Assembly (NCBI GenBank): GCA_018015315.1
Contig: GCA_018015315.1_3629.1
Reading direction: 5' to 3' (one strand)
Length of the DNA stretch: 64,000 nt
Origin: a phage
Shown in pieces: positions 3,820 through 62,836 of the stretch (position 1 is the stretch's first letter; every line of letters starts with the position of its first letter). The notes beneath the pieces were generated by a model. That model saw only the letters and a program-made list of their open reading frames with translations, was not told the DNA's origin and ran no database searches. The position numbers were made by a program, and so were the translations under genes.

Positions 3820-4079
3820 CCACAAAAATCACTATCGCAGAACCGAAAGCTAACACTCAACCTATCGAAAAGTTTAAGTGCGGTGAGGTGGTAACATTCA
3901 CACCAGATAATGAAGATGCTAAGATTTTCGCAATGGTCACAGCTGAGTGGATGTGTGACAACACCACACAGGTTCTGCGTTTTGACACCTATCTTACCGA
4001 CGAAATCAGGAACGACAAGATCGTGACTGGTGTGGATACTGAGATTGTTTTCTACAAGAGCTTTTTAGAGGGTTTCTGA
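3816..4079 (+). CDS. small hypothetical protein, paralog 3
   Basis: 87 aa; ATGA start/stop overlap with paralog 2; CGEVV motif in the same position. Confidence 0.55.
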   Translation: MTTKITIAEPKANTQPIEKFKCGEVVTFTPDNEDAKIFAMVTAEWMCDNTTQVLRFDTYLTDEIRNDKIVTGVDTEIVFYKSFLEGF

Positions 4080-15538: not shown

Positions 15539-16585
15539 TTAAGCATAAGATATAGTGATCCATTGACCATTTACAAGTTTTTGGATAGCACCTGTCCAGT
15601 AGTCACCTTGATAAGGGTGTTTATAAGCGTAGTTACCAGAGCACATCACATGTCCAGGGTAGACTCTTGACTCTCTGTAGGTGGTTTTGAAACGGTTTGC
15701 TATCCTTACATCATCAACCCCTCTGCTAGGCATAGGAATAGTAAGGTTACCACTACTGTCTGCGCCGTTACCATTTACCCTGCGGACCACGTTTCTTCCA
15801 CCAACTGTTGCATATTGGCCCCTGACGGTTTCATCGTTACAATCAACTCTTCCACCTATTTGAGCGCTTCCGCAGGATTGTTGTCCATTAACAGTGGCTC
15901 TTGGTATAGTAACTGCATTGGCATTTGCAGAGGAACTTTTTGCATCGTTGCATTCAAGATTTCCTTGGATAGCCAGTCTTGCACGGTTGGCAGTTATAGC
16001 ATTGAGCTTCATAGCCGAAAACACAGGATGCCCACCAGAAGGTTGAAATCTCCAACGGAACCCGTCTATTTGGTGAGAAGGATCATCAAGGTCTGTGCCG
16101 TCAGCACCGCCGATGTTGTCCATAATCCAGAAGTCCATAGTCGTCTTGTCTGGAGTTATGGTGGTATATATTGCCGCATTGTCTGTTGACGCAGATGCAA
16201 ACTCGATTCTTTGAAGACCTAAAGTTTGAGTCTGAGTCATTATGTCTCCAGACTTGTCAACATACAGATCGTCCATTTCTTCAGGCGAGTATACATTGAG
16301 AACTTGACGTGCAGCAGCTTTGTCTGGAACGTCTGCTAGATTATTAGTGACCCTTAAGAATCTATTGTCCCATCCTGGGACAACATCCTCTGTTAAATGC
16401 TTTAACCACGCAGAAAGCATGTGAAGTTCAAAGTTAACAACTTCACATGCCACTCTTTGTGTCATATCCCAACCTTTCAATCTCTCTTCTTTTTTTGGTT
16501 GAGATTTATTCAACTCTCCCGTATTTTCAAGCACAACATCCTGATTGGCCCAAATATCAAGAGGGATAACTGGTTTAGTCATCAC
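15539..16585 (-). CDS. tail fiber protein, paralog A
   Basis: 348 aa; N-terminal region and C-terminus (QKLVNGQWITISYA) paralogous to 17597..18637; KSGDxMTQ motif like the GDTMTG motif common in phage fibers. Confidence 0.65.
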   Translation of the reverse strand: MMTKPVIPLDIWANQDVVLENTGELNKSQPKKEERLKGWDMTQRVACEVVNFELHMLSAWLKHLTEDVVPGWDNRFLRVTNNLADVPDKAAARQVLNVYSPEEMDDLYVDKSGDIMTQTQTLGLQRIEFASASTDNAAIYTTITPDKTTMDFWIMDNIGGADGTDLDDPSHQIDGFRWRFQPSGGHPVFSAMKLNAITANRARLAIQGNLECNDAKSSSANANAVTIPRATVNGQQSCGSAQIGGRVDCNDETVRGQYATVGGRNVVRRVNGNGADSSGNLTIPMPSRGVDDVRIANRFKTTYRESRVYPGHVMCSGNYAYKHPYQGDYWTGAIQKLVNGQWITISYA

Positions 16586-54857: not shown

Positions 54858-55144
54858 TAACCTCTCTCCTTTGGAAACAGTGTTCTAATATAGTCTTGCA
54901 AAATGATCAATTTAGCTCTATCATTGCTACAAGACAAATTATTATCCCTCATAATGCCAGAATTTACTGCATCTGGAGCACCTTTCTTCAAAGGCATAGC
55001 TTTAGCAGGTGGTTTCATGGCACCTTCCGGGGGTTTAACAATCAACCTTCCTACATCTGGAGGGTCAATCTTGTATTCTCTCTCAACGCTGGTTGCACAC
55101 CCACATAATAACAAGCACACAATAAACAGTGTAGCAACTCTCAT
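54857..55144 (-). CDS. o-spanin (Rz1-like outer-membrane lipoprotein)
   Basis: 95 aa; signal peptide with lipobox LLLCGC; Pro-rich mature part; overlaps the i-spanin stop by 4 nt. Confidence 0.6.
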   Translation of the reverse strand: MRVATLFIVCLLLCGCATSVEREYKIDPPDVGRLIVKPPEGAMKPPAKAMPLKKGAPDAVNSGIMRDNNLSCSNDRAKLIILQDYIRTLFPKERG

Positions 55145-55539
55145 CTACCCTCCTGATTAATACTCTCATTATAAATATCTATAAGCTGATCAGGGAGTGT
55201 TGACTTCTTACCCTCAGGTGACTGGAGGTAAATAATCTGCTTTTCTTTACCTGCCTTCTCAGCCATATTTAATTTATCCTGTAGATCAGAAAGGGATTTT
55301 TCAAGGTTTTTAACCTCCTCTGCGTGGCCCATTTTAATTTTGTCGGCCTGCTTTTGTTGCTGATCAAGGATCCGTTCCCACTTTAACTCTGTTGCTGACA
55401 CACCTTCTTGGTAGGCATCATTAAGCTTAGAGTTAAACCAATACACGGCCCCAAGATAAGCTGTACCTATCGCAGCTGCAAAAACTAAACCTTTTATGAT
55501 CCCTCTATACCTGCTCAGCCATGTTAAAACTGAAATCAT
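55141..55539 (-). CDS. i-spanin (Rz-like)
   Basis: 132 aa; N-terminal TM helix (GLVFAAAIGTAYLGAVYWF) followed by coiled-coil-like charged sequence. Confidence 0.6.
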   Translation of the reverse strand: MISVLTWLSRYRGIIKGLVFAAAIGTAYLGAVYWFNSKLNDAYQEGVSATELKWERILDQQQKQADKIKMGHAEEVKNLEKSLSDLQDKLNMAEKAGKEKQIIYLQSPEGKKSTLPDQLIDIYNESINQEGR

Positions 55540-55554
55540 TTTAAGGCTCCAGAA

Positions 55555-55590
55555 ACGAAAAAACCCCGCAGCTATACAGCTAACGGGGCG
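55555..55590 (-). terminator. rho-independent terminator
   Basis: CCCCG...CGGGG stem with structured loop, followed by UUUUUU. Confidence 0.5.
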
Positions 55591-55644
55591 GGTTAAAATT
55601 GAGTAACCTAAATAGATCGAAACTAACTAAAAGGAGACTAATAC

Positions 55645-55914
55645 TTATCGAGGCACTCGGTGGATGATTCTAACAGTAACTGCATTTTCATTCATCAAGT
55701 ATGCATCTACATCTCTGTAAATATAAAACTTCTGCTCACTATCAACAACACAAGCTACCGCCCCTTCAGAGTTGTCTTCAAAAAAGACCACCACTGCATC
55801 GCAGCTGAGTTCATGATATGACTCTCGAAGATTTACAGCCAGAGGATTGAAATCGTCACGAAAATCTACGGTATGGGTTGGATTTACACGCTCTACAATT
55901 TTAAGTGTATACAT
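55645..55914 (-). CDS. hypothetical protein
   Basis: Start set at the internal ATG (MYTLKIVERV); the longer track ORF would overlap tRNA-Pro. Confidence 0.45.
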   Translation of the reverse strand: MYTLKIVERVNPTHTVDFRDDFNPLAVNLRESYHELSCDAVVVFFEDNSEGAVACVVDSEQKFYIYRDVDAYLMNENAVTVRIIHRVPR

Positions 55915-55960
55915 TTTAAAGGTTCCTTTTGTTTGTATATGTTTAAAGTATAACTGAAAG

Positions 55961-56037
55961 TGGTCTCCACGGAGTGATTCGAACACTCGACCTCCTGATC
56001 CCAAATCAGGCGCTCTACCAAGCTGAGCTACGCGGAG
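55961..56037 (-). tRNA. tRNA-Pro (anticodon UGG)
   Basis: Hand-folded cloverleaf: acceptor CTCCGCG/CGTGGAG, D-stem GCTC/GAGC, anticodon stem CCTGA/TCAGG, loop TTTGGGA, T-arm GAGTG-TTCGAAT-CACTC, CCA encoded. Confidence 0.75.
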
Positions 56038-56048
56038 TATTTACTATT

Positions 56049-56123
56049 TGGTGGCCCTGGGTGGAATTGAACCACCGTCTGGCGATTATGAGTCGCTTGC
56101 TTGAACCTTCCAGCTACAGGGCC
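56049..56123 (-). tRNA. tRNA-Met (anticodon CAU; could be Ile-lysidine type)
   Basis: Acceptor GGCCCTG/CAGGGCC, anticodon loop CTCATAA, T-arm GGTGG-TTCAATT-CCACC, CCA encoded; D-stem only 3 bp. Confidence 0.65.
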
Positions 56124-56124
56124 T

Positions 56125-56200
56125 TGGTGCTGATGGCAGGACTTGAACCTGCAACATATTGATTACAAATCAATTGCACTACCAATTGTGCTACATCAGC
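56125..56200 (-). tRNA. tRNA-Thr (anticodon UGU)
   Basis: Perfect cloverleaf: acceptor GCTGATG/CATCAGC, D-stem GCAC/GTGC, anticodon stem ATTGA/TCAAT, loop TTTGTAA, T-arm GCAGG-TTCAAGT-CCTGC, CCA. Confidence 0.8.
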
Positions 56201-56205
56201 AAAAA

Positions 56206-56304
56206 GGTGCTAGGTGATGGAATCGAACCATCTATGTATTCAACGACTACCTCGTCTATTTTCAGGATTAAAAATCCTCGCCCTTGCCAAAGGGCTTACC
56301 TAGC
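56206..56304 (-). tRNA. atypical tRNA-like gene (possible anticodon UUU, ~30-nt extra region)
   Basis: Perfect acceptor (GCTAGGT/ACCTAGC), D-arm (GCCC-TTTGGCAA-GGGC) and T-arm (GATGG-TTCGATT-CCATC), but 4-bp anticodon stem and an unusually long region before the T-arm. Confidence 0.4.
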
Positions 56305-56402
56305 TCAGTATGTTGACCATGTTGCTAGTCGGCGATGACGACTGTAACATTTGATAATCCGGTTCTGCTTCCGGCTTTCGCTTAATTACAAGGTCAACAA
56401 TG

Positions 56403-56493
56403 TGGCAGAGGATAATGGAATCGAACCATCATCGAGTCATCCTCAACGGGACGGTTTTCAAGACCGCTTGAGCACCATTGCTCCCTACCCTCT
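56403..56493 (-). tRNA. tRNA-Ser (anticodon UGA), long variable arm
   Basis: Anticodon arm GCGGT-CTTGAAA-ACCGT, variable-arm hairpin, T-arm GATGG-TTCGATT-CCATT, acceptor AGAGGGT/ATCCTCT with one G-U pair, CCA encoded; D-arm spacing unusual. Confidence 0.6.
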
Positions 56494-56610
56494 TTTATTA
56501 TAAACAATACTGATAATGACACTGATTTTCGAGCAGTTAGTGACTAGTATAAACGACGATAAATACCAATGCCATTATCTGTATGATTTATGCATCTAAA
56601 AATATAAATT

Positions 56611-56697
56611 TGGTGGGGAGTGGTGGAGTCGAACCACCCGAGTCGCAATGACAATAGATTTACAGTCTACACCGCTACCTCTACGGGATAACTCCCC
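56611..56697 (-). tRNA. tRNA-Tyr (anticodon GUA), long variable arm
   Basis: Acceptor GGGGAGT/ACTCCCC, anticodon arm GTAGA-CTGTAAA-TCTAT, T-arm GGTGG-TTCGACT-CCACC, CCA encoded. Confidence 0.7.
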
Positions 56698-56701
56698 AAT
56701 T

Positions 56702-56776
56702 TGGCACCCCGTACTGGACTCGAACCAGTGTCAACGGCTTAGAAGGCCGCTGCTTTATCCACTAAGCTAACAGGGC
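56702..56776 (-). tRNA. tRNA-Arg (anticodon UCU)
   Basis: D-stem GCTT/AAGC, anticodon arm GCGGC-CTTCTAA-GCCGT, T-arm ACTGG-TTCGAGT-CCAGT, CCA encoded. Confidence 0.75.
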
Positions 56777-56872
56777 ACTGGGTGGCTTTCTTTTACACCT
56801 TAGCCGCCAGAAAAGGTGGGAGACCATGTTTACAATATTACACTGTTAAGCAAAGTTTGTCAAGAAAATATT

Positions 56873-57211
56873 TTAGCTATTGCTAACAGGCTGTATTTCT
56901 GTGGTGAATGGCATAAAAGGTGCTGGTTTTTCAGCCTCTTCTACTACCACCTCTTCCTCTTCACCAAACATCTCATCATATTCTTCCTGCATTCGGTCTG
57001 CCTTATCAAGAACATACTCTGCAATGCTTTGACGAATATTTTGTTTGGTTTTCGGGTCCAACATCAGCTCTCTTAGAACTTTGTGAGCTTCTGGAACCAT
57101 CGCTATAAAAGATTCCTTCATATCAAGGATGTTCTTCTCTAGCTGAATGGCGTTGGACTCCTCTTTCAGAGGTCTGCCTCTACGGCGACGCTTTTTAGTT
57201 GTATCCGCCAT
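56873..57211 (-). CDS. small protein with basic N-terminus and acidic C-terminus
   Basis: Start at the internal ATG (MADTTKKRRRRGRP) with GGAGG RBS, 25 bp downstream of a consensus promoter. Confidence 0.55.
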   Translation of the reverse strand: MADTTKKRRRRGRPLKEESNAIQLEKNILDMKESFIAMVPEAHKVLRELMLDPKTKQNIRQSIAEYVLDKADRMQEEYDEMFGEEEEVVVEEAEKPAPFMPFTTEIQPVSNS

Positions 57212-57239
57212 GTTTCCTCCATTATCACGTGATAGGTGG

Positions 57240-57268
57240 ATTTTATCATAGCAAATACTGATTGTCAA
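57240..57268 (-). promoter_or_regulatory. near-consensus sigma70 promoter
   Basis: Minus strand: TTGACA (57263-57268), 17-bp spacer, TAAAAT (57240-57245). Confidence 0.6.
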
Positions 57269-57555
57269 GTTCGCCGCAGGGTGGTATTCCCTGCGACTTG
57301 TCCAGCGTCCTGGACCAGCAAGACCCAACAAGTGGGTTACCAGAGCCCATTACCGCGCTTTGGCTAGACCTTATTACAGGTTGGCTGGGGTCACATCGTC
57401 ATGTGCTGGCTGCCCCTACCATTTTAAGTGTGGTGCACTATCAAGCTCTCTAAGGGGAACTCAGCCTTCTCCGAACCCTGTTTCAAAGCATCCGGAGATA
57501 AAGCCATCAAATTCATCTTTAAATTGGATATTCATCATGATACACGAAAACAACC

Positions 57556-57798
57556 TCATTGTAAAGCACAAATAAATAAAACATACTTAATTTGTTTGTT
57601 ATCAGGCTCAGGGTAGAAGTAGAAGATCTTGCTATCACCGATCTGAACACCACCATCCCAACAGCATAGCCCATAACCCGTATTCATACAAGCTAAGTCG
57701 TTGGCAAAATCTATTGCATCATCCAGTGCACGAAATTCACCTTCATCTTCTAAATAATCCTCATTCATGGAACGAAAAACGAGCTTAACCTTAAACAT
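57556..57798 (-). CDS. hypothetical protein
   Basis: 80-aa ORF. Confidence 0.45.
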   Translation of the reverse strand: MFKVKLVFRSMNEDYLEDEGEFRALDDAIDFANDLACMNTGYGLCCWDGGVQIGDSKIFYFYPEPDNKQIKYVLFICALQ

Positions 57799-57874
57799 AG
57801 CATTACCTGTAGACCTCGTAAGTTAAAATTGTATCACATCATATTGCAGATCTTATCAGGTAACATTATTTTTG

Positions 57875-58084
57875 TCAACAGATTCCGGCCTTATCTCGCC
57901 TGTCTGTGTATTCTTTAATCGCAACCTCATCTGCATTAGTGACCAGGTCTTCAAAGTAACTCTCAAGCTCCTCGTCAATGTCAGGAGACCAGCCCTTTTT
58001 CCTGTCAGTGTGAATCGCAGACTTGTTAAACTTAGTACAGTTCTTTGCTACCGGATTGTTCATTAAGCACCCCTCAGCGTTCAT
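57875..58084 (-). CDS. hypothetical protein
   Basis: 69-aa ORF overlapping the upstream gene end by 11 nt. Confidence 0.4.
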   Translation of the reverse strand: MNAEGCLMNNPVAKNCTKFNKSAIHTDRKKGWSPDIDEELESYFEDLVTNADEVAIKEYTDRRDKAGIC

Positions 58085-58652
58085 AGTAAATCTTATTTAA
58101 CATTACCTCATCCTTTGCAGAAAGGATATCTAGATATGCATCACCGAATCTACCTGCAACAACCTCTGCATGATACATCACTTCGTTAATATCGTCAAGA
58201 GTGATAACTGGATGACCGTATCTCTCTGAGTATTGTCTCAGAGTGCGATGTAGGGAGTCATCATCATAGGCAGACTTTTTAATATCACAAACACGACGAA
58301 TAGCCTTGATGTCGAAAAACCCTGTACGATACCAACCAAGAAAAAGGTTTCGTGCAGTGTCAACATCTACATCAATACCATTAAGAACCTTATCTACAAG
58401 ATAGCTGTCATCCTTTGGACCAGCTTCCTTAGTGCGAATGTAGTTGCCATCTTTTCCAGGTGACATCTCCTTCTCATCACCAACCTGCATGCCATCATTT
58501 GGCGGTGTTAGCCACTTATCCGGATGCTTACGATCACGAGCGTTAGAATGATTACGCTGGAAACCAGGCTTCCACTTGAAAGTTTTCTCCATCTGTTCTT
58601 CATTCTGATAACGTTTTGCAATCTTTTCACGGTCATCTTTGCGTGAACCCAT
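58074..58652 (-). CDS. hypothetical protein
   Basis: 192-aa ORF with GAGGAGG RBS. Confidence 0.55.
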   Translation of the reverse strand: MGSRKDDREKIAKRYQNEEQMEKTFKWKPGFQRNHSNARDRKHPDKWLTPPNDGMQVGDEKEMSPGKDGNYIRTKEAGPKDDSYLVDKVLNGIDVDVDTARNLFLGWYRTGFFDIKAIRRVCDIKKSAYDDDSLHRTLRQYSERYGHPVITLDDINEVMYHAEVVAGRFGDAYLDILSAKDEVMLNKIYYER

Positions 58653-58780
58653 AGCTGCCTCCTCTTCAAGTTATAGAAAAACTCACTGTATCACTTTGTA
58701 ACGAGCTTTTCTATCAAACTGGTGCGATTGCATTACCTGGTATAGTTTATATAGCTGTGGAGCGATTTAGGGGCCTTCTT

Positions 58781-59025
58781 GTCAGTTTCCACACATAAAC
58801 TTCATCCAAGCTCGCGCGGGAGACTCTCAACCGACTCCTTACGGCGCTGGCAAGCTTTCGTCGGTGGTCCACATCAGTGCTCGGCCTTTGGCCTGCGCTA
58901 TCGCTTCGCTCCCACACATGTTAACAGACCTGCATGTATGCACTTCTGTTATTGTGTGCACCAAGGAGGCCCGGCATCTCGCCCATCGTAGGCGAGTGCC
59001 AATGAAGGGCCGACACTACCTATAG
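58781..59025. ncRNA. candidate structured non-coding RNA (GC-rich island, strand unknown)
   Basis: About 245 bp of GC-rich sequence in an AT-rich intergenic gap; ends can pair (GGCCTTC...GAAGGGCC); several internal hairpins; no credible ORF or RBS. Confidence 0.3.
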
Positions 59026-59155
59026 TAAGTAATAATTTTAAAACATGGTACTTAGGATCTAGTATATTCTACATAAGTTAAGTATATGTACTTAGTACCA
59101 TAAGTACTAGATCTTTTATTTTTTATTATTTAGTTATTTTAGTTATATTCTTTAT

Positions 59156-59236
59156 GTGTCCGTATCACGGACAGTTAGTGTCCGTATTACGGGCAGATGT
59201 GTCCGCGTGACGGACAGTAGTGTCCGTATCACGGAC
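59156..59236. repeat. array of four palindromic iterons (TGTCCGT-NNN-ACGGACA)
   Basis: Units start at 59156, 59178, 59199, 59220 (21-22 bp periodicity); units 1 and 4 identical, 2 and 3 differ by 1-2 bases; beside an AT-rich stretch with inverted repeats (GATCTAGTA 59055-59063 / TACTAGATC 59104-59112). Confidence 0.7.
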
Positions 59237-59312
59237 AGTTACTGACCTCTGTTCCAGAGCGAACATAAAACATACGAATCCTTATAGTACAGATATTTAA
59301 GTTTTTACTGGT

Positions 59313-59663
59313 CTAACCAGTTGTTGACATTCGAATAACCTCTTCTGGTGGCAAAACTTTGGAAAATGTACATCTTTTACCTCTCCCTTGTGTGGATATT
59401 TCAACCACTCCTGCACATTCTAAAGTTTTAACGCACGCTGCTGCTTTTGTTTTCTTTATCCCAACATCTGCTGCAATTTTCCTTGTGCTTGGTGTGAAGC
59501 GTGAATTTCCTCCAAGCTTATACCAGTTGTGCAGGTAGCAGTATACGATCTTGTCATATAAGTCAAGAACAACAACCTCCCCAGTTGTGTCATTCAAAAC
59601 TTTTGACATAGACAGTATTTCAAGGGGGACTTTAAGATATAGCAGCTTATCCCCATCTTTCAT
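59313..59663 (-). CDS. putative helix-turn-helix DNA-binding protein
   Basis: 116 aa; HTH-like segment TRKIAADVGIKKTKAAACVKTLECAGVV; adjacent to the iteron array. Confidence 0.55.
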   Translation of the reverse strand: MKDGDKLLYLKVPLEILSMSKVLNDTTGEVVVLDLYDKIVYCYLHNWYKLGGNSRFTPSTRKIAADVGIKKTKAAACVKTLECAGVVEISTQGRGKRCTFSKVLPPEEVIRMSTTG

Positions 59664-59710
59664 ATCTCCTGATTCTCCTTGTGTGGCAATTTTCTTTAAA
59701 ATAGCAGGGA

Positions 59711-60265
59711 TTACTCCCCGCTGTCAATAGCAAGACTCATTGCAATAAGGTATGCCTCTTCTAATGGTAAGAGTCTCCCCCACACATCCCAACCGACATC
59801 AAACTGCCTGCCAAACAACTGCTGTGTGGTTCCGTGAGCATGACCGAACAGTTGGACTGATCCGTGAGGCTTTCTGTTCCACTTTGCAAACTGGTAATGG
59901 CTCATACAGATCAAATTCTTGTTGTGGCGAAGCTCGTAATAATCTACAACCTCATGACCGAACTCTTTCATAATTCTGACAGTCGTCCTTGTGTCATGGT
60001 TACCACGAACAAGAATAATATGTCCGTTCAACATATTTAGAACATCTGGGAGCAATTTGTTGATATTCTTATCATTAGTGCACGCAATATCTCCCAAGTG
60101 AAACACAGTGTCTGCAGGCGACACAACAGAGTTCCACTCGGCGATGATTCCCGCATTCATACTGTCAAGATTGTGATCATACTGAGATCTGTGTTTTTGA
60201 CATGAATCAAACTCCATGACCCGCTGGTGGAGAAAGTGTGTGTCGCTTGTTACAAAGTATTTCAT
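59711..60265 (-). CDS. calcineurin-like metallophosphoesterase
   Basis: Start at the internal ATG (MKYFVTSDTHF); motifs D-x-H (SDTH), GD (HLGDIA), GNHD (RGNHDT), GHxH (GHAHG). Confidence 0.7.
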   Translation of the reverse strand: MKYFVTSDTHFLHQRVMEFDSCQKHRSQYDHNLDSMNAGIIAEWNSVVSPADTVFHLGDIACTNDKNINKLLPDVLNMLNGHIILVRGNHDTRTTVRIMKEFGHEVVDYYELRHNKNLICMSHYQFAKWNRKPHGSVQLFGHAHGTTQQLFGRQFDVGWDVWGRLLPLEEAYLIAMSLAIDSGE

Positions 60266-60272
60266 ACATTCC

Positions 60273-60683
60273 TCATTTAAGTTTAATGCAGTTTTTAAGC
60301 TGGCGTTCCATACGATCCACAACCTTGTCTGGAACATCATGAATGCTTTTATTACCGTGGCGGTTTTCAACCACGATCACGGTATAACTATACCCATGAC
60401 TGATTGCCATGTCAACATATTCCTGCACATGTTTTTCTTTTGTAAACGTATTACTTACCACGATACGGTCGTATCCCATACGCATCATATCTTCTACGTT
60501 ATCTTTGCACCATTTTGCTGCGAGTGTTACTTTACTTGCATCCCAGTTGTAATTGCCGTCATCGTCATACCAGAACATATCGTTCTCAAAATGTGGATAC
60601 AGACCTTCTAAAGATAGCGCATTTGCCAGTGTTGATTTGCCAGACCCTGGCAGACCACGCACGATATATAGCATTTTAGACAT
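60273..60683 (-). CDS. P-loop polynucleotide kinase-like protein
   Basis: Start at ATG (MSKMLYIV) with GGAGG RBS; Walker A GLPGSGKST at residues 10-18; ~136 aa, the size of a standalone 5'-kinase domain. Confidence 0.65.
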   Translation of the reverse strand: MSKMLYIVRGLPGSGKSTLANALSLEGLYPHFENDMFWYDDDGNYNWDASKVTLAAKWCKDNVEDMMRMGYDRIVVSNTFTKEKHVQEYVDMAISHGYSYTVIVVENRHGNKSIHDVPDKVVDRMERQLKNCIKLK

Positions 60684-60711
60684 AGCAATCCTCCGTTTTA
60701 ATTTTAATGAT

Positions 60712-60740
60712 AGTATACCTAACTGTTTTGTTAATTTCAA
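60712..60740 (-). promoter_or_regulatory. sigma70-like promoter for the kinase/phosphoesterase pair
   Basis: Minus strand: TTGAAA (60735-60740), 17-bp spacer, TATACT (60712-60717). Confidence 0.55.
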
Positions 60741-60783
60741 GTGTTGACACTAGGTTATTTGTGTGGCAGGATAGACTGACAAA

Positions 60784-61719
60784 ATGACAAATGAGGAACG
60801 TATGATGAAGTATTTTAATGCAGATGACCTAGTAGACAAAGGTCTTGTAACCAGTCGGTATTATCCAGATCTTGGATTAAAGATCTATAAATATGCCAGA
60901 AAAGTATTCTACAACAATCTGTGGCATTTGTCTCCGCGTTTACTGGAGTGCCGAGGTATTGTTGTTGGCAATGAGGGGAATGTTGTGGCATGGCCTTTCA
61001 CAAAAGTATTCAACTTAGGAGAAAACTCCACCAACCTACCGGACAGTAAACTTGTTACTGCGGTAGAGAAAAAGAACGGATTCCTCGGTGTGGTATCATC
61101 TCATAAAGGTGAACTATTGTTCTCAACAACCGGGTCTCTTGATTCTCCATATTGTAACCTTGCAAAGGAAACCATCCAAGAGCAATGTGGTAATTTAGAT
61201 CTTATCAAGAAGGTTATGGGCAATGAAAACATGACATTCATGTTTGAAATTTGTCACCCTTCAGATCCGCATATTGTTCAAGAAGACCATGGCGCATATT
61301 TGATAGGTTGCAGATATAATGATTCTGGAATAATGCTACCAGAAGCAGCTTTAGATGGGATTGCCAAATACCTTGGTGCAAAACGTCCTCACACTGTGCG
61401 TGAAATCCCGTTCAGCTATGCAAAAGAATTAGCTGCAGAAACAAGGGGCGAAGGGTATATGATCCGTAAGCCTTACTACCCTTATGACCTGCAGCTGAAG
61501 ATCAAGTCTCCATACTATTTGGCACGGAAGGCCGTAATGAGAGGTAAAGCATGGAAGATTTGGGATGACGATATTTTTAAACGTGTTGACGAGGAGTTTT
61601 ACGGTATGGTAAAATTTATTCGTAGCAACTATACAGAAGATGTGTGGAATTGCTTATTAGAGCAGGAGCGTCGCGAGATACTGGACTGCTATTTCCACAA
61701 CGAGGACTACATGAAATGA
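60784..61719 (+). CDS. RNA ligase (Rnl-like nucleotidyltransferase)
   Basis: 311 aa; candidate motif I lysine in VEKKNGFLG (KxxG); divergent from the kinase/phosphoesterase operon. Confidence 0.6.
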   Translation: MTNEERMMKYFNADDLVDKGLVTSRYYPDLGLKIYKYARKVFYNNLWHLSPRLLECRGIVVGNEGNVVAWPFTKVFNLGENSTNLPDSKLVTAVEKKNGFLGVVSSHKGELLFSTTGSLDSPYCNLAKETIQEQCGNLDLIKKVMGNENMTFMFEICHPSDPHIVQEDHGAYLIGCRYNDSGIMLPEAALDGIAKYLGAKRPHTVREIPFSYAKELAAETRGEGYMIRKPYYPYDLQLKIKSPYYLARKAVMRGKAWKIWDDDIFKRVDEEFYGMVKFIRSNYTEDVWNCLLEQERREILDCYFHNEDYMK

Positions 61720-62066
61720 AGAAGTGGATTGTGTGGCTTGATGATTTTAGAGATCCGTCAGATTATGGACTCCCAGACGCTCTGTGGCTAAAGAATTCTT
61801 CTGAATTTATGGATTTTCTTAATGATAAGAGAAAGCTCTACAGACGCGTATCTGAATGGTATTTTGACAATGATCTAGGTGAAGTTCTTGAAGGGTACGA
61901 CTGCTTCTCTGCGCTAGAGGAGAAACTTGTATTCGGAAAGCCACCACTTATTGACAACGTGATTATTTTCGTGCATACTTCTAATCCATCGGCAGCTCGT
62001 AAATTTATGCTTGCTGCTGACTCATTCAAGAAGTTTGGAATAGAGATCAAACAAAACATCTACTGA
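61716..62066 (+). CDS. hypothetical protein coupled to the RNA ligase
   Basis: ATG overlaps the ligase stop (ATGA); 117 aa. Confidence 0.5.
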   Translation: MKKWIVWLDDFRDPSDYGLPDALWLKNSSEFMDFLNDKRKLYRRVSEWYFDNDLGEVLEGYDCFSALEEKLVFGKPPLIDNVIIFVHTSNPSAARKFMLAADSFKKFGIEIKQNIY

Positions 62067-62074
62067 GGACACTT

Positions 62075-62836
62075 ATGCGACGACTGATTATTATCTCCGG
62101 TGCTGGTTTGAGCGCTGAATCTGGTATTCCCACTTTCCGATCTGGTAGCACTGCAATGTGGGAGAATTTCAGCATCGATGAGGTGTGCAACATCCACACC
62201 TTTGCCAAGAACTACTATAAGGTGCATGACTTTTACAATGCACGTCGTGTAGCTCTGGGCAGTGTTGATCCTAACCTTGCACATCTTCGGATCGCTGAGT
62301 GGTATTCCCGCTGGTCTGGTCGTGTGATCAACCTTACCACCAATGTAGATGATTTGCTGGAGCGTGCTGGTGTAAAACATGAAGATATTTTACATGTCCA
62401 CGGGTATTTGCCTGAAATCACCTACGAAGATGCTGAAGGTAATGATGTAATTAAAAATATCGGATACACGGAGGTAGATACAGGCAAGTATACCTGGGTT
62501 AAGCCCAATGTAGTGTTCTTCGGTGAGGTTGCTCCTAAGTATACAGACATGTATGACCTGTTGACATCTCTCACAAGCAATGATATGGTGATCCTAGTAG
62601 GTTGTTCTAACACAGTTATTAATTTTAACTGGGAATTGTTTCCTGCTACTTGTAAAGGCACAAAACTGCTGATTGTAAACAAGTATGACTCGCAGAGTGC
62701 AGATGGAAGTGGCATTTCACGTAGCGACCTTTATCAATATGAGGATCGCGGGATCCCTGTATGGTTTAACGGTGCTGTTGACGCTTTCTCTGATAAAGCA
62801 TTTATTGAAACTGTAGAAAACTTTATGGAACTTTAA
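62075..62836 (+). CDS. Sir2-family (sirtuin-like) NAD-dependent enzyme lacking the Zn-ribbon
   Basis: Sirtuin motifs GAGLSAESGIPTFRS, FYNARR, TTNVDD, HVHG, VVFFGE, ILVGCS; the CxxC...CxxC zinc module is absent. Confidence 0.75.
   Translation: MRRLIIISGAGLSAESGIPTFRSGSTAMWENFSIDEVCNIHTFAKNYYKVHDFYNARRVALGSVDPNLAHLRIAEWYSRWSGRVINLTTNVDDLLERAGVKHEDILHVHGYLPEITYEDAEGNDVIKNIGYTEVDTGKYTWVKPNVVFFGEVAPKYTDMYDLLTSLTSNDMVILVGCSNTVINFNWELFPATCKGTKLLIVNKYDSQSADGSGISRSDLYQYEDRGIPVWFNGAVDAFSDKAFIETVENFMEL

Follow-up and report, generated by a model that had tools for sequence, protein, structure and literature searches.

Within a 64,000-nucleotide stretch of phage DNA (GenBank assembly GCA_018015315.1, contig GCA_018015315.1_3629.1; hereafter the window), which comes from an rV5-like phage (genus Vequintavirus, a myovirus with E. 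coli hosts), four copies of a short semi-palindrome stand in phase next to an A/T tract and a gene for a winged-helix protein of 116 amino acids (aa). We favor, with moderate confidence, the reading that this locus is an iteron-type replication origin of the rV5-like phage, served by an initiator that has been reduced to its DNA-binding domain. The locus carries the marks of an iteron origin: phased repeats in the same orientation, a flanking A/T-rich region, and an adjacent winged-helix gene homologous to initiators. A first-pass annotation of this DNA had taken the repeats for either cooperative operators or origin iterons, and the second of these readings gains support, from sequence comparison, in three ways: the homology of the protein to initiators, the occurrence of arrays of the same palindrome in nine viral lineages, and the conservation of the array and the A/T tract.

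The paper describing the rV5 genome sought an origin by skew analysis and found none (PMC3606486). A full-text literature search retrieved no paper linking the repeats or the 116-aa protein to an origin, and the database records on the locus offer no more than a 'repeat_region' feature without further description, or a protein name derived from homology. Read as an origin, the locus is a new case of the iteron type, and the twist lies in the initiator, of which the DNA-binding domain is all that is left.

The palindrome array and its A/T-rich flank

The repeated unit is TGTCCG-N5-CGGACA, present in four copies that start at positions 59157, 59179, 59200 and 59221 (start-to-start distances of 22, 21 and 21 bp); all four lie in the same orientation, as direct repeats of 21-22 bp that each contain an internal palindrome. 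The first-pass annotation had described four copies of TGTCCGT-N3-ACGGACA spaced by 21-22 bp, of which the number and the spacing stand, while the 7-3-7 form is exact in only two of the four sites and the conserved core is 6-5-6. In minus-strand order, the first iteron, nearest the helix-turn-helix (HTH) gene (TGTCCGTATCACGGACA, 59221-59237), and the second (TGTCCGCGTGACGGACA, 59200-59216) match the core exactly, as does the one adjoining the A/T tract (TGTCCGTATCACGGACA, 59157-59173); the third (TGTCCGTATTACGGGCA, 59179-59195) has a mismatch in one arm (ACGGGCA). The bases next to the sites (C...C on the minus strand) lack symmetry, which gives the sites a polarity. The array itself is flanked by GTTAG... 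on the plus strand and by CATAAAG... on the minus strand.

When up to two mismatches are allowed, the palindrome has one further match in the whole window, at 16366. Shuffled sequences give a mean of 1.22 such matches per 64-kb window, so that four sites within 81 bp are far beyond chance. The first-pass annotation had also proposed a search for the palindrome through a full genome, and this search returned a single locus: none was found beyond the array in the rest of the ~135-kb genome of the closest annotated relative. One locus per genome indicates a single cis-acting locus and not a regulon.

The array adjoins a pure A/T tract (59110-59155, ~20% GC, T-rich on the plus strand), which is a candidate DNA-unwinding element. 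At the start of the tract stands GATCTTTTATTTT (59110-59122), the sole exact match in the window to the consensus GATCTnTTnTTTT of the E. coli oriC 13-mers. Overlapping the start of the tract is a conserved A/T-rich block of interleaved inverted repeats (59045-59113), almost invariant across the genus, in which GTACT stands three times in direct orientation and the Dam site GATC twice. One repeat pair is ATGGTACTTAG/CTTAGTACCAT at 59045-59055 and 59091-59101, and the other, as read from the letters, is GATCTAGTA/TACTAGATC at 59056-59064 and 59105-59113; because the pairs are interleaved (A B ... A' B') and not nested, they cannot form one simple cruciform. The AT-rich flank with inverted repeats of its own that the first-pass annotation had reported is thus real: GC content falls to 20% across 59050-59149, compared with ~44% for the window, and two repeat pairs are present. 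The block is probably part of the origin, and it may contain the binding sites of a second factor.

Conservation within the genus

The gap that holds the array was aligned across ten diverged representatives of the genus, some of them metagenomic lineages in which the protein is 86-91% identical; identities are given here for the window against the lineage that has diverged most. They amount to 97.6% for the array and 93-94% for the A/T tract, and the corresponding values at third-codon positions are 71-74% in the HTH gene, 79% in the phosphoesterase gene and 75-77% in the polynucleotide-kinase-like (PNK) gene. A hypervariable 22-bp spacer between the 3' flank of the gene and the array (59240-59261) is 54.5% identical and can be taken as an internal yardstick for near-neutral divergence. 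No other DNA in the neighborhood is as well conserved as the array and the A/T tract.

Within the array, nearly all changes are confined to the five central base pairs; the arms differ solely by T/C exchanges at arm position 3, in two sites. At 59221-59237 the arms are invariant in nine of the ten diverged relatives (the metagenomic lineage L047 has TGCCCG), at 59200-59216 the arms are invariant and the center differs by lineage, at 59157-59173 the arms are invariant across the relatives, and at 59179-59195 the palindrome is perfect again in phage JEP1. Across the aligned relatives no compensatory changes were found in the arms, and a would-be seventh base pair is not kept. Fixed arms, variable centers and the lack of compensatory changes argue that these are double-stranded DNA sites for a dimeric protein, not RNA hairpins, and that the A/T tract beside them is under constraint as well.

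The 116-aa protein resembles iteron-binding initiators

The gene next to the array (59313-59663, minus strand, from the list of open reading frames (ORFs)) is the homologue of rV5 gp075/ORF79. Its product is named 'replication initiation protein' in RefSeq and 'putative transcriptional regulator' by the GenBank depositors; it matches PHROG 12838 ('replication initiation protein') at E 2.5e-80, and it gives weak alignments to the N-terminal winged helix found in the larger initiator families phrog_8102, phrog_428 and phrog_270. The best sequence match in the PDB is 4RO3 (E 1.4e-6, residues 12-90, identity 27-29%), which is the N-terminal domain of RepA from the V. cholerae phage satellite PLE (PMC7145576).

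Structure prediction leads to the same protein. An AlphaFold2 model built on a 16-sequence alignment (predicted local distance difference test, pLDDT, of 81.5; a single-sequence model reached only 42) consists of a single winged helix with an N-terminal beta-hairpin. For the modeled fold, Foldseek again ranks 4RO3 first (E 6.6e-6, template modeling (TM) score 0.65), followed by the RepA_N initiators 4pql, 4pt7, 5kbj and 4pta (E 3.7e-4 to 2e-2, TM 0.50-0.56, 112-115 columns) and by three partial matches of 71-83 columns to proteasome-lid winged helices (E 3.4e-3 to 1.6e-2); all remaining matches, transcription factors included, have E >= 0.02 over 60-90 columns. As 4RO3 is the best match in both sequence and fold, the nearest characterized relatives are iteron-binding replication initiators, and the protein looks like a RepA_N-like iteron-binding N-terminal domain that lacks the C-terminal domain.

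Searches by tblastn and by a word-indexed protein search found the protein in Vequintavirus only, at 86-100% identity; at such identities close relatives cannot show co-variation between protein and site. An exhaustive HMMER search added a few distant relatives (25-35% identity, 182-228 aa), and the contigs that carry them (L010-L014) had no clear iteron arrays beside the gene.

The same palindrome in unrelated viruses

A scan of 2.9 million viral contigs in IMG/VR, which used the DNA pattern alone (two adjacent sites), yielded 22 contigs from nine independent lineages with 40%-70% GC and two to seven copies of the palindrome each. Of 39 intervals, 19 measure 22 bp, which makes this the commonest spacing, and 21 bp comes next. 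In eight of the nine lineages the array is located inside an ORF of 130-530 aa, directly 3' of an N-terminal winged helix, and matches to the PHROG category 'replication initiation (O-like)' at E < 0.001 occur in five of the nine (L015, L016, L017, L028 and L032). The order is invariable across the lineages: winged-helix coding sequence, iterons, and then A/T-richer DNA or secondary repeats.

The ninth lineage (L026; IMG/VR contig 3300021399_000004, 169 kb, 40% GC) repeats the rV5 layout, with a standalone winged-helix protein of 120 aa, four sites and A/T-rich DNA, beyond which lies a GC-rich hairpin. Its protein matches phrog_186 and phrog_270 (DnaD-like and initiator PHROGs), and its sites (3987-4079) start 3 bp past the stop codon and are irregularly spaced, by 34, 24 and 18 bp. 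L026, an unrelated large phage, provides a second and independent case of the domain-only layout.

When the profile of the rV5 protein family was compared by hhalign with that of the array-bearing N-terminal domains, the match had a probability of 96.4% and E 1.3e-9. The shared TGTCCG/CGGACA arms do not prove common ancestry or common specificity, because they were built into the search pattern; among many origins, chance could give a few lineages with any given 6-mer in common, and no obvious conservation is seen in the recognition helices of the array-associated proteins. What the scan shows is what phased arrays of such architecture usually are in viruses.

The equivalent module in sister genera

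Phages of the genera Seunavirus, Mydovirus and Henunavirus possess a winged-helix gene of 105-122 aa, the product of which is in some cases named 'replication initiation protein' in RefSeq. By BLASTP against the rV5 protein, the Seunavirus protein scores E 4e-6 and that of phage Hena1 only 0.02; the Seunavirus protein has no significant sequence match in the PDB, and its link to RepA_N therefore depends on its similarity to the rV5 protein alone. Semi-palindromic repeats accompany the gene, genus-specific in sequence: two of the type TGCTCAA-A-TTGAGCA, 23 bp apart, are present in Seunavirus, Mydovirus and the Henunavirus phage pEp_SNUABM_01, and Hena1 has three of the type TATTCCC-N3-CGGGTATA, spaced by 66 and 24 bp. 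Next to the repeats comes an A/T tract of ~100 bp that, compared by eye, locally resembles that of the window and includes both AAGATCT and 13-mer-like motifs (GATCT plus a T-run); the same module in Seunavirus contains a GATCTA(T/G)TATATTCTAC motif related to the block at 59045-59113.

The gene is placed differently. In the sister genera the repeats are found at its 5' end, directly upstream of the ribosome-binding site, whereas in the window they are found at its 3' end. With the gene flipped relative to the repeats, the conserved unit is the combination of binding sites and A/T tract and not a promoter-operator geometry, which favors a cis-acting origin.

Comparison with characterized origins

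The closest characterized relative of the 116-aa protein, in sequence and fold alike, is RepA of PLE. PLE RepA was shown, by mobility-shift assays and deletions, to bind the semi-palindromic iterons of the PLE origin and to be required for replication of PLE (Barth et al., NAR 2020; PMC7145576), and replication of the satellite also needs the SF1B helicase of its helper phage (PMC7145576); the genome of rV5 includes genes for a helicase of the PIF1/RecD type and a helicase-primase of the DnaB type (PMC3606486). The two systems share a phage-encoded replisome and a Gram-negative host, and the need of PLE for an SF1B helicase has its parallel in the PIF1/RecD-type helicase of rV5. They differ in that PLE RepA has a C-terminal domain whereas the 116-aa protein stops after the DNA-binding domain, in that the iteron of the window has another sequence and lacks the central poly-A tract, and in that PLE is a satellite whereas the window element resides in the genome of a virulent phage.

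The origin of phage lambda lies in the middle of gene O and is made up of an AT-rich region and four iterons, each an imperfect inverted repeat of 19 bp (PMC7466680). Lambda and the window thus both have four imperfect-inverted-repeat iterons of 17-19 bp with an A/T-rich region on one side, and they share the polarity of DNA-binding-domain coding sequence, iterons and A/T tract. The lambda iterons, TCCCTC-N5-GAGGGA, are also of the 6-5-6 form, and the O-like ORFs that bear arrays in other viruses also match some of the families (phrog_8102, phrog_428 and phrog_270) that the 116-aa protein matches weakly. Unlike the lambda origin, which lies inside its gene, the window array lies outside, past the stop codon; and lambda O has a C-terminal, P-binding domain, whereas the 116-aa protein has none and no P-like loader is encoded nearby.

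The second-best whole-domain fold matches are the RepA_N initiators of staphylococcal multiresistance plasmids (pSK41 and pTZ2162; 4pql, 4pt7 and 5kbj), one of which is a Rep-iteron DNA complex, and these have no significant sequence similarity to the 116-aa protein (E about 1.2). The iterons of staphylococcal RepA_N plasmids are located inside the rep gene. RepA_N plasmid initiators bind semi-palindromic iterons as dimers (as summarized in PMC7145576) and carry a host-specific C-terminal domain (PMC7145576).

How the locus might work

From these comparisons we infer that the 116-aa protein binds at the locus, that the tract melts and that replication starts there. Dimers of the protein, made early, would fill the four 17-bp semi-palindromes; since the sites are 21-22 bp (two helical turns) apart, the dimers would lie on one face of the DNA and could form a cooperative complex. 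Such a nucleoprotein complex would stress and open the adjoining tract of ~20% GC, with its oriC-type 13-mer at the start, and the phage's own helicases and replisome would load on the opened DNA. As the protein has no C-terminal recruitment domain, loading would have to rely on remodeling of the origin alone or on a separate phage factor.

A further step, which we take only tentatively, is to suppose that the rV5-like phages and L026 use a 'headless' initiator, a RepA_N-type iteron-binding domain without a recruitment domain. The phased complex of protein and iterons would then open the A/T tract, the SF1B or DnaB-type helicases of the phage would load themselves, and a GC-rich element on the far side of the gap (58745-59030, described below) might give rise to a structured transcript or an R-loop that primes synthesis.

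Evidence that weighs against an origin

Several observations count against the origin reading. The most direct concerns the protein: a second domain that would recruit a helicase or primosome is not found in it, as it ends at residue 116, and known initiators of the iteron type do carry such a domain in addition to the DNA-binding domain that is all the 116-aa protein has. In Pfam the protein falls just short of the cut-offs of DUF6945 (PF22182; 27.1 bits against 28) and HTH_36 (24.5 bits against 25), borderline scores that leave it outside formal membership, and it matches neither RepA_N (PF06970, at E up to 1) nor Phage_rep_O; winged helices, moreover, cross-match easily in profile comparisons.

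The DNA offers similar grounds for caution. The oriC 13-mer match is not significant alone, as ~2 matches are expected by chance at up to one mismatch. A single DnaA box was found at one mismatch where 1.7 are expected, hence no enrichment, and no integration host factor (IHF) site was found at the locus, so that there is no evidence for involvement of DnaA or IHF. Large virulent myoviruses may have several origins or replicate in a recombination-dependent manner. Switches of GC and AT skew in rV5 coincide with changes of transcription direction, one of them ~1.4 kb from the site (PMC3606486); skew, being confounded by transcription direction, is uninformative at this locus. Finally, the 5' position of the repeats in the sister genera suits autorepression equally well.

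Alternative explanations

The first alternative, which we regard as possible though rather unlikely, is that the array is a transcriptional operator and nothing more, the winged-helix protein being an early repressor or roadblock with no role in replication. It would act on read-through from the early operon or on a promoter in the A/T tract, and thus on the GC-rich element, the downstream ORF77 and the tRNA genes. The depositors' label points this way, winged-helix dimers on phased palindromes are classic operators, and the operator arrays of phage repressors resemble the window in having several dimer palindromes on one face of the DNA beside a small HTH gene. A protein without any domain beyond DNA binding would suffice for this role, and in the sister genera the repeats sit between the ribosome-binding site and the A/T tract, as autorepression would have it.

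The geometry of the window is different. The array had been placed, by implication of the first-pass annotation, in front of the HTH gene, and this has to be corrected: the gene is on the minus strand and the array is 76 bp downstream of its stop codon (59313-59315), not upstream, which argues against simple autoregulation of its promoter in the window. A promoter scan, which did not include phage-specific promoter types, found no sigma-70-like promoter within 59030-59320 on either strand, so that, unlike the operators of phage repressors, these sites overlap no promoter of that type. The closest characterized relatives of the protein, by sequence and fold, are replication initiators, and the genome has no further palindromes that could make up a regulon. 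In eight of the nine other lineages, moreover, the arrays are inside coding sequences, mostly of initiator-like proteins, where an operator role is implausible, and the conservation of the A/T tract, which phage-repressor operators lack, would go unexplained. Rep initiators also act as autorepressors, and some regulatory role is therefore likely even if the locus is an origin.

Far less credible is an element that acts at the level of RNA, in which the palindromes would form hairpins in the 3' untranslated region of the winged-helix mRNA and serve as tandem terminators, exonuclease barriers or processing sites in the manner of REP (repetitive extragenic palindromic) elements. The array does follow the stop codon in the direction of transcription, and its minus-strand RNA folds strongly (-44.6 kcal/mol, z-score -6.1), but palindromes produce such a fold automatically, and a scan for intrinsic terminators called none at the array, with no U-run after any hairpin. 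The third site would give a C-A mismatch on the transcribed strand (as read from the sequence), the arms are essentially fixed with neither compensatory changes nor a maintained seventh pair, and the occurrence of the same arms at 21-22-bp phasing in coding regions of unrelated viruses is a property of DNA-binding sites.

Two independent metagenome assemblies break inside the array or just past it: the contig of L047 stops 168 bp beyond the stop of the gene, and that of L048 within the second site. These ends are most likely an assembly artifact at the repeats. Together with the restriction of the palindrome to one locus per genome, beside a dedicated small DNA-binding protein, they are the grounds on which another cis-acting role for that protein might be argued (a packaging site (pac), a partition or anchoring site, or a decoy titrating a host or satellite factor), which we consider highly improbable, since assembly breaks explain the contig ends most simply, the 116-aa protein has no similarity to small terminases or ParB-type proteins, and its homology points to replication initiators.

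A GC-rich element in the same gap

The array lies in a gap of 660 bp between called ORFs (58653-59312). The first-pass annotation had given its length correctly and had missed that ~285 bp of it are a separate conserved element of 55-62% GC (58745-59030, minus strand), which takes up the half of the gap farther from the array. This element is ~90% conserved, single-copy and confined to Vequintavirus, being absent from the equivalent module of the sister genera. It folds better than shuffled sequences (minimum free energy z-score -3.0), and RNAalifold predicts 86 pairs, only one of them covarying, with a long-range closing helix; in rV5 an 18-bp deletion takes out one arm of an internal hairpin. 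Searched against Rfam, the intergenic region had no family match at gathering thresholds, nor any when E was relaxed to 10. The element may be a structured RNA, and it is uncertain whether it belongs to the origin. Some records annotate short ORFs within 58745-59030, and these are probably spurious.

Gene order and the surrounding region

The region 58650-59720 matches 119 phage records at 95-99.7% identity, all from rV5-like myoviruses. Eighteen of the GenBank records (MG0656xx) are titled 'Campylobacter phage', with C. jejuni as host, and are 99-99.7% identical at this locus to rV5-like phages of E. coli; probably the host labels are wrong or the phages came from contaminating coliphage.

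The plus strand carries no genes across 55000-60740, and all genes there are on the minus strand. In the direction of transcription the order is the polynucleotide-kinase-like gene, a metallophosphoesterase gene, the 116-aa HTH gene, the gap, an ORF of 192 aa, and then small ORFs and seven tRNA genes. The 192-aa ORF (ORF77, called from 58652 to 58074 on the minus strand) is the next ORF after the gap and has no known function. The idea that it could be a detached C-terminal domain of the initiator found no support, as it had no match in Pfam, PHROG (apart from its own family), the PDB, or a phmmer search against the ORFs that neighbor arrays.

Surrounding the locus, at 59711-62836, is a set of genes reminiscent of RNA repair: the AAA_33 polynucleotide-kinase-like gene, the metallophosphoesterase, a T4 Rnl1-type RNA ligase, a protein with a cREC_REC domain and a Sir2-like deacetylase. 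The set is kept but rearranged in the sister genera (L037/L038), in which the winged-helix gene heads an operon with PrsA and nicotinamide phosphoribosyltransferase. A second local GC-rich patch (57250-57450, 51-56% GC), partly outside the called ORFs, lies between the small ORFs that precede the tRNA cluster and an ORF of 152 aa (56873-57331). The tRNA cluster itself contains an odd tRNA-like gene of 99 nucleotides (56206-56304, minus strand), for which ARAGORN gives a four-base anticodon (atcc) and the Rfam tRNA model scores only 37.5 bits; it has been annotated variously as tRNA-OTHER or tRNA-Lys, and it may be an insert-bearing, degenerate or unusual tRNA.

Implications

The rV5-like phages are common in collections of E. 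coli phages, as the ~119 near-identical records illustrate, and a mapped origin would aid their engineering, the reading of coverage profiles, and studies of interference by satellites and defense systems. The locus extends the iteron-binding domain of the RepA_N/PLE type to large virulent coliphages. With a natural version that consists of the DNA-binding domain only, the contribution of the missing C-terminal domain could be tested cleanly; and should the initiator indeed be headless, remodeling of the origin alone would suffice, which would bear on how the RepA_N and PLE initiators work.

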